Positions 61,840-62,631 of a stretch of 64,000 bases of DNA are shown in pieces. The translations under genes and the position numbers were made by a program. Source of the stretch: an uncultured Bacilli bacterium (GTDB lineage: Bacteria > Bacillota_I > Bacilli_A > RF39 > UBA660); the NCBI GenBank assembly GCA_910587745.1, contig CAJUNE010000001.1, positions 15,439 through 79,438 of the forward strand. Reading direction: 5' to 3'. The notes beneath the pieces were generated by a model. The model saw only the letters and a program-made list of their open reading frames with translations, did no database searches and had not been told where the DNA came from. Within the stretch, counting starts at the first letter, position 1. The number at the start of each line of letters is the position of its first letter.

Positions 61840-62631
61840 ATGGAAAAAGGAATAAATAGTAATACAAGATATACTTTAGGATACATAGGAAAAGAAAGAT
61901 TAAGTGAAATAGATGAGTATATTAAAGAAATTTTATTTAGTAAAGAAGTAATTACATTTGCAAATAAAGAAGAAATTGAAAAAAGTTTTACTGTATTTTT
62001 AGATGAATTTTATGAAAGAACAAGTATACAAGAAAGAGCAAGTATCTTAAGTTATACTGGTTTAAGTTTCCGTAAAGTCAATGATTATTTAAGAGGAATA
62101 TGGAATTATGAAAAAAATGGCAAATTAACAGATGAAGTAAAAAAAGAAGCAAGTTCTATTGCGGATAATTTAAGAAAAGTTTTATTAAAAGCTCCATTTT
62201 TACCTTTTAATATGGTAGTATATCGAGGTGTAGGTATATCTACATTTTATTCTTATGGCATAACTAAAATAGAAGATTTAATATATTTAAAAGATAAATA
62301 TTTATATGAAGAAGGATTTACTAGTACTTCACTTTTAAGAAGTAATAGTTTTTATTCTAAGCAACCAGAATGGGGAAGTATTTGTAATATTGAAATCGAG
62401 TGTTTAGTCCCAAGCGAATCTGAAGATGGAGTAGCATTAATTGATAATATTATAAGTTATTCAGAAAATCAGTTAGAGTTTCTAATTAATAGTTCCTCTT
62501 TATTTAAAGTAATAGATGTTAAAATAGATAAAGAGAGTAATAAAGCTAAAATAAAAACCATCTTAATTCCCCAAAAATTATGGAATCCTCTAGATTATGA
62601 TATGGAGAGAAGTAGCAATAAATTGACTTAA
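61840..62631 (+). CDS. C3/VIP2/iota-family mono-ADP-ribosyltransferase-like protein (R-S-E class), no signal peptide
   Basis: YTGLSFRKVNDYLRG (YxxxxYxxINxYLR-type helix), VYRG (catalytic Arg), FTSTSL (STS motif), ENQLEFLI (Q-x-E/E-x-E ARTT loop), in canonical order and spacing. Confidence 0.5.
   Translation: MEKGINSNTRYTLGYIGKERLSEIDEYIKEILFSKEVITFANKEEIEKSFTVFLDEFYERTSIQERASILSYTGLSFRKVNDYLRGIWNYEKNGKLTDEVKKEASSIADNLRKVLLKAPFLPFNMVVYRGVGISTFYSYGITKIEDLIYLKDKYLYEEGFTSTSLLRSNSFYSKQPEWGSICNIEIECLVPSESEDGVALIDNIISYSENQLEFLINSSSLFKVIDVKIDKESNKAKIKTILIPQKLWNPLDYDMERSSNKLT

Follow-up and report, generated by a model that had tools for sequence, protein, structure and literature searches.

A predicted stand-alone ADP-ribosyltransferase of the C3/VIP2 type in a variable slot of an uncultured Bacilli chromosome

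What is an ADP-ribosyltransferase (ART) gene that lacks a secretion signal doing in an uncultured gut commensal, and does it work together with any of the genes around it? As far as we know, ARTs of the C3/VIP2 type occur almost solely as exported pathogen toxins, in toxin–immunity pairs, or as phage proteins. The gene considered here lies in a 64-kb window (the whole stretch of DNA that was analysed) beside the att site of an inserted element. The initial annotation had compared it to toxin–antitoxin toxins and phage enzymes, with a macro-domain protein and the downstream ORF as candidate partners.

The gene product and its active site

The gene and the elements assigned to it are as follows.

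61840..62631, + strand: ART gene with an ATG start, encoding a 263-aa protein assigned as a single-domain R-S-E (C3/VIP2-type) mono-ADP-ribosyltransferase on the basis of ORF, Pfam, AF2, and Foldseek
61829..61834, + strand: Shine-Dalgarno sequence AAGGAG, read from the sequence, 5 nt before the ATG of the ART gene
61840..62004, + strand: family-specific N-terminal helices, residues 1–55 (alignment A1 and secondary structure of the model)
62077..62097, + strand: INxYLR-like helix of PF03496, V80-N-D-Y-L-R-G86 (family alignment and profile alignment)
62224..62226, + strand: Arg129 of V127-Y-R129-G (YRG), the putative NAD-binding arginine (aligned to YR of Certhrax and VIP2)
62323..62331, + strand: Ser162-Thr163-Ser164, STS motif (invariant in A1)
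62470..62478, + strand: Gln211-Leu-Glu213, Q-x-E of the ARTT loop, in E209-N-Q211-L-E213-F (aligned to GQYE of Certhrax)

The ORF very probably encodes a complete NAD+-dependent mono-ADP-ribosyltransferase of the R-S-E class (C3/VIP2/Certhrax type, PF03496), an activity predicted from the sequence. The PF03496 profile (ADPrib_exo_Tox) matched residues 56–238 over profile positions 11–187 of 196 (E-value, 4.9e-15; 55.8 bits against a gathering cut-off of 23.4 bits); the same assignment is common to all 34 full-length homologues, and a Pfam scan found no second domain in the protein. The AF2 model (pLDDT, 93.1; pTM, 0.90) was matched by Foldseek to C3bot1, Certhrax, VIP2, CDTa, Lmo0066, and Plx2A at E-values of 5e-13 to 6e-11, with TM scores of 0.72–0.79 normalised to the single-domain targets, and thus has the ART fold, in which a helical N-terminal part joins a split beta-sandwich core. 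The R-S-E hallmarks that the initial annotation had read from the translation (VNDYLRG, VYRG, STS, and ENQLEF) were borne out, all four being found in the expected order, far beyond chance, with the arginine, STS, and Q-x-E at the aligned catalytic positions.

Residue conservation was judged on two sets of family members, A1 (n = 22) and A2 (n = 18), which belong to one family (hhalign probability, 100%; E-value, 3.8e-69). The arginine, the STS motif, and the Q-x-E motif are invariant or nearly so across the two sets: Arg129 is invariant in both, Glu213 is nearly invariant in A1 and its equivalent invariant in A2, and, in the INxYLR-like helix of A1, Asn81 and Leu84 are invariant and Arg85 nearly so. 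In the predicted reaction, Arg129 and Ser162-Thr-Ser164 would hold NAD+, and Glu213 of the Gln211-x-Glu213 ARTT loop would catalyse the transfer of ADP-ribose to a macromolecular acceptor.

Substitutions occur in some members, with Leu or Glu in place of Gln211, Asp in place of Glu213 (P0024), and variants of STS in A2, and in one locus (L025) the gene immediately upstream of the ART gene encodes NrtR, an ADP-ribose-sensing regulator of NAD metabolism. Such features would suit an enzyme that acts as an NAD+ glycohydrolase, or a binding protein that retains the fold but is catalytically silent. We consider either improbable for the window protein, as its R/STS/Q-x-E set is intact, like that of nearly all members, and as the ART gene is under purifying selection (dN/dS, 0.17–0.35 among orthologues).

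The N-terminal residues 1–55 have the consensus MEKGTNxxTxYxLxYIG... in A1, and AF2 places helices at residues 7–16, 18–34, and 43–60 with pLDDT of about 90 or more. About 222 of the 263 residues align with C3 in Foldseek, and the model extends by about 40 residues beyond this stretch. The N-terminus consists of these confidently modelled helices and has no domain for delivery or trafficking of the LXG, MuF, Rhs, or similar kind. The lack of a secretion signal was likewise confirmed: neither a signal peptide nor a membrane segment was found (highest 12-residue Kyte–Doolittle mean in the first 60 residues, 1.0), 39 of the 40 family members examined also lack a signal peptide, and the protein is acidic (pI, 5.2), as are all 40 (pI, 4.3–5.9). 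An intracellular target, as originally proposed, can reasonably be inferred.

Searches for other signatures returned little. NCBIfam gave nothing relevant for the protein, and PADLOC (PADLOC-DB v2) gave no ART or defence-system family, its sole match being a spurious, off-target one to Cas13a (E-value, 2.7e-4; 17.5 bits). All Rfam matches in positions 61000–64000 were sub-threshold and at chance level, and therefore no riboswitch is assigned there. In a promoter scan, sites were no more numerous than in shuffled sequence; the ART strand showed no terminator-like site, and no stable hairpin follows the stop codon (z, -0.68).

Relatives among ADP-ribosylating toxins

In the PDB, the family profile matched Certhrax (E-value, 1.1e-7), VIP2 (1.9e-5), and Lmo0066 (5.8e-5). 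Arg129, STS, and Gln211-x-Glu213 align to YR, STS, and GQYE of Certhrax, and the YR and STS of VIP2 and Lmo0066 also align. Certhrax from Bacillus cereus (PDB ID: 4fk7/4fxq/4gf1) is the best profile-to-PDB match (residues 52–222), with agreement at the YR, STS, and Q-x-E positions and a Foldseek E-value of 7.6e-13 at only 22–25% identity. Its chain has 460 residues, of which the ART match covers the C-terminal portion (~207–424), whereas the window protein has only the catalytic domain, preceded by about 40 N-terminal residues specific to the family; Certhrax enters cells via anthrax protective antigen. Lmo0066 from Listeria monocytogenes (PDB entry 8za7_B) is the best single-sequence PDB match (E-value, 2.5e-4) and, among the matches listed, shows the best target-normalised fit (TM, 0.79; rmsd, 3.5 Å; identity, 25%). 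It was deposited with its cognate ARH as an 'ART-ARH type toxin effector-immunity protein pair', whereas the neighbourhoods of the present family contain no ARH, macro, or other conserved partner.

The C3 exoenzymes (C3bot1, C3stau2, C3lim, and C3cer) and Plx2A, single-domain R-S-E ARTs of comparable length that also carry Q-x-E in the ARTT loop, gave the top Foldseek matches (E-value, 5e-13; TM, 0.72–0.76 normalised to target). The window protein shares with them the single catalytic domain with Q-x-E, but differs by the lack of a Sec signal peptide, by an acidic rather than basic pI, and by an extra N-terminal helix pair; C3 exoenzymes are basic secreted proteins. At the sequence level, the family profile matched C3lim and C3stau marginally (E-value, 0.18–0.42) and over the C-terminal third only. 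The enzymatic components VIP2, iota Ia, CDTa, and C2I share Pfam family and fold with the window protein, and their R and STS regions align; their solved chains comprise about 400 residues, in contrast to 263 residues forming one domain with Q-x-E. The A components of binary toxins have two tandem ART-fold domains and an E-x-E motif and are paired with a pore-forming B component. No B-component gene was found near the ART gene, the neighbours of which are a fragment of a substrate-binding protein (SBP) gene and a gene termed c6.

These relatives raise the reading of a C3-like exoenzyme directed against eukaryotic cells (those of the animal host or gut protists), which would be made in the cytoplasm, be freed by lysis or an unrecognised route, and ADP-ribosylate a regulator of the cytoskeleton (a Rho GTPase, vinculin, or actin, for example). 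The nearest relatives in structure and sequence are toxins that act on eukaryotes (C3bot1, Certhrax, Plx2A, VIP2, and CDTa); the protein has Q-x-E as in Certhrax and, like C3, consists of one domain and lacks a B component; the gene is accessory, fast-evolving, and in one case borne by a mobile element, as are C3/EDIN genes; and all sources of family members are animal gut or rumen. No immunity gene lies beside it, and none would be needed, because the producer would lack the target. Against this reading stand the near-universal lack of a signal peptide and the acidity of all members, in contrast to the C3 exoenzymes, together with the marginal sequence link to C3 and the lack of a holin or secretion gene in the ART neighbourhoods. 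On balance, we regard it as possible but unlikely.

The locus and the neighbours of the gene

The features that surround the ART gene in the window are as follows.

61260..61718, − strand (61718..61260): N-terminal fragment (aa 1–152) of an NMT1-type ABC substrate-binding protein (SBP), cut by the element
47324..46767, − strand: remainder of the SBP, aa 148–333
47332..61261, no strand: 13.9-kb insert in the SBP gene, a serine-recombinase element
47684–48676, inside the insert: Rep gene
48952..49524, inside the insert: macro-domain ORF (PF01661; E-value, 2.8e-16)
56526–57869, inside the insert: PIF1-like helicase
58640–59236, inside the insert: small resolvase
59490–61052, inside the insert: large serine recombinase
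62731..63915, + strand: c6, a conserved 394-aa acidic coiled-coil protein heading the c6-c8-c12-sepF-divIVA cluster

The att junction was located at ~61262–61268, about 575 bp from the ART start codon, in keeping with the earlier placement of the gene just outside the att site, between the split SBP fragment and an acidic coiled-coil ORF. Five other loci (L001, L008, L011, L015, and L024) carry the ART gene and an intact SBP gene without the 13.9-kb element. Across 62 c6 loci, the ART gene occupies the slot between SBP and c6 in 3, and c6 occurs without it in 59, the slot being empty or filled by unrelated genes; c6 usually adjoins the SBP gene directly. The ART gene of the window is accessory and fills a variable slot, with an NMT1-type ABC-transporter operon on one side and the conserved sepF/divIVA cluster on the other. 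It does not belong to the adjacent serine-recombinase element, nor is it functionally tied to the macro protein or to c6, which is a core gene of the lineage. In one further locus (L027), the ART gene is itself cargo of a small large-serine-recombinase (LSR) element inserted in the same transporter gene.

The 33 ART loci fall into three unrelated syntenic contexts (groups A, B, and C) plus singletons. No gene is conserved beside the ART gene across these loci, nor in the A2 branch, where the contexts differ again; the absence of a conserved neighbour argues that the enzyme has no dedicated immunity protein or antitoxin. The neighbours in groups B and C are quite different from those in group A, and c6 is absent from them. 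A link to cell division through sepF/divIVA was considered and found unsupported, the adjacency being limited to the group A sub-lineage. Contexts in the A2 branch include S1/ART/infB and rpsO/ART/truB, and ribosomal-protein genes occur near group B; a link to translation is uninformative, as the neighbours differ between branches, and our guess is that the carrier genomes are rich in housekeeping genes.

These neighbourhoods bear directly on the suggestion that the protein is the toxin half of a toxin–antitoxin or toxin–immunity pair, neutralised by the macro protein, the 62731 ORF, or an unlinked hydrolase. Lmo0066, the closest single sequence in the PDB, belongs to an effector–immunity pair, and a macro domain is indeed encoded on the inserted element within the same 64-kb window. 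As an antidote, however, the macro protein was rejected, being cargo of the 47.33–61.26 kb insert that is missing from ART-bearing relatives, and c6 was rejected as an immunity protein from its ART-free occurrence in 59 of the 62 loci and the different neighbours in groups B and C. The expectation that homologues would be flanked by immunity genes failed across the 33 loci and the A2 branch, and the listed neighbourhoods, which reach as far as 8 kb to either side where the contig is long enough, contain neither a macro nor an ARH family. The gaps flanking the ART gene (~120 and ~100 bp) are too short for a small antitoxin gene, and the N-terminus has no delivery domain. Such a pair is, in our judgement, very improbable, and the outcome for the annotation is negative: that the att site, a macro domain, and the 62731 ORF lie near the ART gene is incidental and does not define a system.

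A phage-derived enzyme (Alt/ModA/ModB-like or fused to MuF) surviving in a prophage remnant was also considered. The protein matched phrog_3895 (E-value, 3.4e-9) and, partially, the Alt-like phrog_802 (5e-5) among PHROGs, and its fold matched phage VIP2-like ARTs in BFVD. Set against these matches, 2.9 million viral contigs of IMG/VR contained a single weak relative (28% identity), viral proteins were matched at 21% identity or less and no better than bacterial toxins were, the flanks are chromosomal with no phage genes around, and a MuF or head domain is absent. The near-absence from IMG/VR, with BFVD matches no better than those to toxins, led us to reject a phage origin, and the Alt/Mod-like proposal is extremely improbable.

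The family and its possible role

The ART clade is compact, comprising about 100 clusters at 50% identity with lengths of 245–330 aa. All strong matches (E-value below ~1e-30; about 100 clusters) are bare ART domains of this length or fragments, and multidomain proteins enter the search results only from an E-value of ~1e-29. The clade is carried by uncultured gut Bacilli of low GC content and by some further bacteria of the gut or rumen. The ART gene evolves faster than its surroundings, with dN about twice that of the flanking genes and 42–54% identity where c6 shows 75–78%. Three loci (L030, L031, and L032) carry apparently shortened ART genes, which are frameshifted or cut; the defect in L030 may be a sequencing error, because the assembly is long-read.

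The clade thus combines an intact active site with the absence of an export signal, a delivery domain, and a linked antidote. The account that we favour, with a probability of roughly 0.5, is that of a stand-alone cytoplasmic accessory ART with a narrow target and no linked partner. The enzyme would stay in the cytoplasm of the producer and modify one narrow target, a modification that the producer would tolerate; from the sequence we infer this target to be either one of the producer's own proteins, regulatory or non-essential, or one that belongs to an invading phage or mobile element. A promiscuous toxin is unlikely, and the partnerless enzyme contrasts with Lmo0066 and its ARH as well as with Bxa and its two immunity proteins. 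Bxa of Bacteroides stercoris is described as a promiscuous, prophage-encoded ART of a gut commensal, with an N-terminal polymorphic-toxin domain and a need for two immunity proteins, Bsi and BAH (PMC11699363). It resembles the window ART as an accessory gene of a gut commensal, a likeness drawn from that description, and counterparts of the prophage origin, polymorphic-toxin domain, and immunity proteins so described were not found for the window ART.

Three considerations temper the reading as a stand-alone cytoplasmic enzyme. In a reversible regulatory system one would expect a linked hydrolase, and none was found near the ART gene; an immunity or hydrolase gene may possibly be located beyond the examined neighbourhoods. 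An unconventional release route is also possible, because the characterised close relatives (C3, Certhrax, Plx2A, VIP2/CDTa, and Lmo0066) are, to our knowledge, all exported toxins acting on other cells. As to an invader's protein as the target, we know of no anti-phage ART that looks like a bare catalytic domain without a sensor, and PADLOC gave no defence family. Action inside the producer would widen the scope of this enzyme class to commensals that ADP-ribosylate their own molecules or those of invaders; release would make the protein, like Bxa, a host-directed ART encoded by a commensal, here of an as yet uncultured lineage. The practical consequence is modest until the target is found.

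A more far-reaching version of the same account would make the clade a class of C3-fold ARTs not recognised before, which are expressed constitutively in the cytoplasm, have no immunity protein, and modify a macromolecule of bacterial or phage origin within the producing cell, serving either as a one-gene innate enzyme against phages and mobile elements or as an endogenous regulatory ART that travels as a mobile accessory gene. This version, taken in full, is tentative and rather unlikely. It would also assign a role to a motif conserved at the N-terminus of the A2 branch, PW..LFDDVEF.G, as a docking peptide for a partner or the target. The contigs of the A2 branch have about 46% GC and come from the rumen, and we would guess that they are perhaps of Saccharibacteria/CPR.

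Fold and active site of the ART protein

The ADP-ribosyltransferase-like gene and its product (both called ART) have the position, strand, and motif order that were read in the initial annotation, as follows.

61840..62631, plus strand: ART open reading frame with an ATG start, 263 residues
5 nt before the ART start codon, plus strand: AAGGAG at the Shine–Dalgarno position
ART residues 80–86, 127–130, 162–164, and 209–214: motifs VNDYLRG, VYRG, STS, and ENQLEF, in this order

The motif series is not a chance occurrence, and PF03496 (ADPrib_exo_Tox) matches residues 56–238 (E-value, 4.9e-15; 55.8 bits in Pfam; gathering score, 23.4). 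Searched against the PDB, the single sequence matched Listeria Lmo0066 (8za7_B; E-value, 2.5e-4) and Certhrax, and the profile of a 22-member family alignment matched Certhrax (1.1e-7), VIP2 (1.9e-5), Lmo0066 (5.8e-5), and Plx2A (1.8e-3). From the family alignment, AlphaFold2 gave a model of very high confidence (pLDDT, 93.1; pTM, 0.90), whose Foldseek matches are C3bot1, Certhrax, C3stau2, VIP2, CDTa, Lmo0066, and Plx2A (E-values, 5e-13 to 6e-11; TM-scores, 0.72–0.79, normalised to single-domain targets). In the HMMER alignments, the Tyr-Arg129 pair, Ser162-Thr-Ser164, and Gln211-x-Glu213 of ART fall on the YR, STS, and GQYE of Certhrax, and the first two also on those of VIP2 and Lmo0066; within the family, Arg129 and the STS are invariant and Glu213 is nearly so. 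The fold and the catalytic positions proposed at the outset are thereby borne out, and ART has every testable feature of PF03496 and of the R-S-E ARTs.

The Q-x-E loop, in place of E-x-E, is common to ART and Certhrax; it is also present in C3 and Plx2A, and by itself is not decisive for the acceptor residue. Neither a signal peptide nor a membrane segment was found in the ART protein, in agreement with its initial description as signal-less, and ART differs in this respect from the C3 exoenzymes. The A components of binary toxins differ from ART, which has neither their two domains, nor E-x-E, nor a B gene, and toxin–immunity pairs differ in having a partner and a delivery domain; ART also has no sensor domain and no linked antidote. 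The character of its closest described relatives speaks for a C3-like exoenzyme that is released and acts on eukaryotic proteins, but this appears rather unlikely, given that signal peptides are absent family-wide (39 of the 40 members examined), that ART is acidic (pI, 5.2), and that its similarity to C3 itself is marginal.

The split transporter gene and the slot upstream of c6

The window has a GC content of ~26% and ordinary chromosomal genes (PFOR, Rel/SpoT, UvrD, Ffh, ABC-F, and MurJ-like). ART is flanked, across gaps of only ~120 and ~100 bp, by a fragment of an NMT1-type ABC substrate-binding protein (SBP) gene and by the coiled-coil gene c6.

Divergent upstream neighbour of ART: SBP N-terminal fragment, 152 residues
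47324..46767: SBP remainder, 186 residues, 14 kb away, beside the ATPase and permease genes
47332–61261: 13.9-kb insert in the SBP gene
48952–49524: macro-domain protein of the insert
Within the insert: large serine recombinase (520 residues), Rep (PF23343), DUF7487, RsgI-like, zinc-ribbon, PIF1-like helicase, and small resolvase
62731–63915: c6, 394 residues, with a coiled coil, an acidic linker, and a helical C-terminal domain (~390 residues in general)
L001, an ART locus, 8894–12029: c6, c8 (~253 residues), and c12 (95 residues), directly upstream of sepF and divIVA

By comparison with the intact orthologue in locus L008, the insert junctions lie at ~47325–47331 and ~61262–61268, with a core of approximately (A/C)AGGAGG, and both SBP halves are kept with an overlap of ~5 codons. 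Some 575 bp separate the ART start codon from the junction, so the initial placement of ART directly outside the att site is correct. A related element occupies the same site in locus L007, its recombinase being only 65% identical and the flanking genes 86–92%, which suggests independent insertions or fast turnover at one att site. A RhuM-family gene (44151–45191; PF13310; E-value, 2e-109) has at its border a duplicate of the final 68 ABC permease codons (43889–44092; 79% identical), which suggests that the transporter operon received a further insertion at its 3' end; RhuM is also at this position in L008.

Five relatives (L001, L008, L011, L015, and L024) carry ART beside an intact SBP gene without the serine-recombinase insert, and therefore without its macro gene, which argues against the macro protein as the partner of ART. 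A tie of ART to serine-recombinase elements does exist, but not through the insert of the window as had been proposed. In L027 (JALEZJ010000035.1, an Erysipelotrichaceae MAG; 2493–8551), the SBP orthologue is cleanly interrupted near residue 112, and its frame is restored as GTEATI/YVYNKGEKDY. The junctions, GCAACAATC/TAGGTTGTTGC and GCAACAACC/TATGTC, are palindromic att-like half-sites around TA, GCAACAA(T/C)C/TA. Besides an ART gene (3516–4301; 38% identical), the 5-kb insert contains genes for a serine recombinase and an M23 peptidase and two further ORFs, and ART is therefore mobile-element cargo in L027; the element targets the same SBP gene as that of the window at a different site.

The downstream gene c6, also considered initially as a partner, occurs widely in gut metagenomes (119 confirmed relatives and 80 loci kept in the scan), and SBP lies upstream of it in the same divergent orientation in 44 of the 80. 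Among the 62 c6 loci that extend 1.2 kb or more upstream of c6, a six-frame profile search detected ART in only 3, two being near-identical (L042 and L043) and the third frameshifted (L044). The SBP–c6 slot (61718–62731 in the window) is otherwise empty (120–250 bp) or holds unrelated genes (loci L039–L118). Therefore, c6, without ART in 59 of the 62 loci, is a core gene and not the partner of ART, which is an accessory occupant of this variable slot. One alternative occupant, a GNAT-fusion protein of 257 residues, was checked against Pfam; the others, labelled by sequence reading, are a probable ZIP-type transporter, surface proteins of 419–729 residues, a 553-residue secreted protein, and probable thymidylate-kinase-like and carboxypeptidase-like (M14-like) proteins. 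In L039, whose c6 (78%) is among the closest relatives of the window's c6 in the scan, the slot holds the 419-residue surface protein and no ART. The c6 protein is highly conserved: between the window and L007, c6 is 92% and ART 74% identical; elsewhere, c6 is 75–78% identical where ART is 42–54%. A Pfam search gave no significant match for c6, c8, or c12, possible cell-division proteins specific to the lineage. Towards their C-termini, proteins of this cluster have what look like short helical repeats.

Gene neighbourhoods of the ART homologues

ORFs were called and clustered in 33 ART loci, which fall into three unrelated syntenic contexts and several singletons. Group A, the type of the window, has the NMT1 ABC operon on the minus strand, ART, and c6-c8-c12-sepF-divIVA; group B has TetR and an Fe-hydrogenase-like gene, ART, and a secreted thioredoxin-like protein, with rplK-rplA close by; group C has LysM/GH18-like and YitT genes, a GNAT-ART pair, and variable genes. 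In a sub-branch aligned separately (18 members), ART is enclosed by S1 and infB or by rpsO and truB, or follows a serpin gene. Groups A–C, the singletons, and the sub-branch loci have no conserved neighbour of ART in common, and no macro or ADP-ribosylglycohydrolase (ARH) family was found in the listed neighbourhoods (up to 8 kb per side where the contig allows); flanking immunity genes, for which a check had been suggested initially, were thus not encountered. A toxin with immunity encoded at an unlinked locus is very improbable.

Several local arrangements were also observed. In nine loci (L016–L022, L029, and L030), a GNAT acetyltransferase of 137–140 residues lies ~35 bp upstream of ART on the same strand (e.g., L016, 7549–7965); the two genes are probably an operon, limited to the sub-lineage of these loci. 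In the singleton L025 (7123–7947), a single instance, an NrtR-type regulator (NUDIX and winged-helix) is located 54 bp upstream on the same strand; regulators of the NrtR family are sensors of ADP-ribose that govern NAD metabolism. In the sub-branch locus L037 (6387–8855), the end of a 537-residue serpin gene coincides with the start of ART (8000/8001), and the L038 contig has the same arrangement.

Distribution, candidate function, and selection

A word-seeded search of a 5.8-billion-sequence database gave only 35 relatives, the full-length ones all of ~245–271 residues with one PF03496 domain each. When 1.84 billion cluster representatives were searched exhaustively with a profile, 101 clusters matched at E < 1e-30, nearly all proteins of 245–330 residues or fragments matching end to end; the next matches are large multidomain proteins, some with a C-terminal ART match. 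The sub-branch (P0077–P0136) has 30–80 additional hydrophilic N-terminal residues, which are not a signal peptide, with a recurring PW..(G)LFDD[VI]EF.G that may serve in docking, after which the first helix begins with T-S-P-D-R-x-C-x-F-Y-L. The two alignments represent one family (hhalign probability, 100%; E-value, 3.8e-69; whole-length alignment). Among species-representative genomes, 23 MAGs contain it, labelled mostly as uncultured Bacilli, Tenericutes, Mycoplasma, Candidatus Onthousia, or Erysipelotrichaceae, with one labelled Clostridium and two Muribaculaceae (binning errors possible); the gut of chicken, mouse, and rabbit is among the sources. Unlike the Alt/Mod enzymes of phages, to which ART had been likened, the family is essentially absent from viruses, with one match at 28% identity in 2.9 million viral contigs, and in fold it matches phage VIP2-like and Alt-like ARTs no better than it matches bacterial toxins; a phage relic is extremely improbable. 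PADLOC and NCBIfam scans gave nothing relevant. ART is best filed as an uncharacterised new clade of a known enzyme kind, the R-S-E ARTs, noteworthy in that, in uncultured low-GC gut Bacilli, its toxin-type active site is intact and is accompanied by neither an export signal nor an antidote.

Judged from its sequence, the enzyme would be active and would stay in the cytoplasm of the producer. Bxa, a promiscuous cytoplasmic ART, needs the immunity proteins Bsi and BAH (PMC11699363), and Lmo0066 was deposited in the PDB with an ARH partner. Since such promiscuous enzymes need immunity and ART is unaccompanied, its target would be absent from the producer, or its modification tolerated. The best explanation, with a probability of about one half, is that ART acts in the cytoplasm on a narrow target. 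Within this explanation, an endogenous regulatory or non-essential target has about half of the weight, and a protein of an invading phage or mobile genetic element slightly less.

The dN/dS among orthologues is 0.17–0.35, a sign of purifying selection, and the ART gene is therefore functional; that it encodes an NADase or a silent protein is improbable. Between the window and L007/L008, ART has a dN of 0.17 (omega, 0.245) versus 0.055–0.10 (omega, 0.09–0.17) for SBP, ATPase, permease, and c6, and thus evolves about twice as fast at non-synonymous sites. A promoter scan at ART was uninformative, no terminator was found by scan or RNA folding, and no RNA element was found around the gene. The homologues in L030, L031, L032, and L044 are frameshifted or truncated, that of L032 ending after the STS region and continuing into unrelated sequence, and that of L030, from a long-read assembly, possibly broken by a sequencing error. 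Such apparent, occasional pseudogenisation is consistent with an accessory gene.
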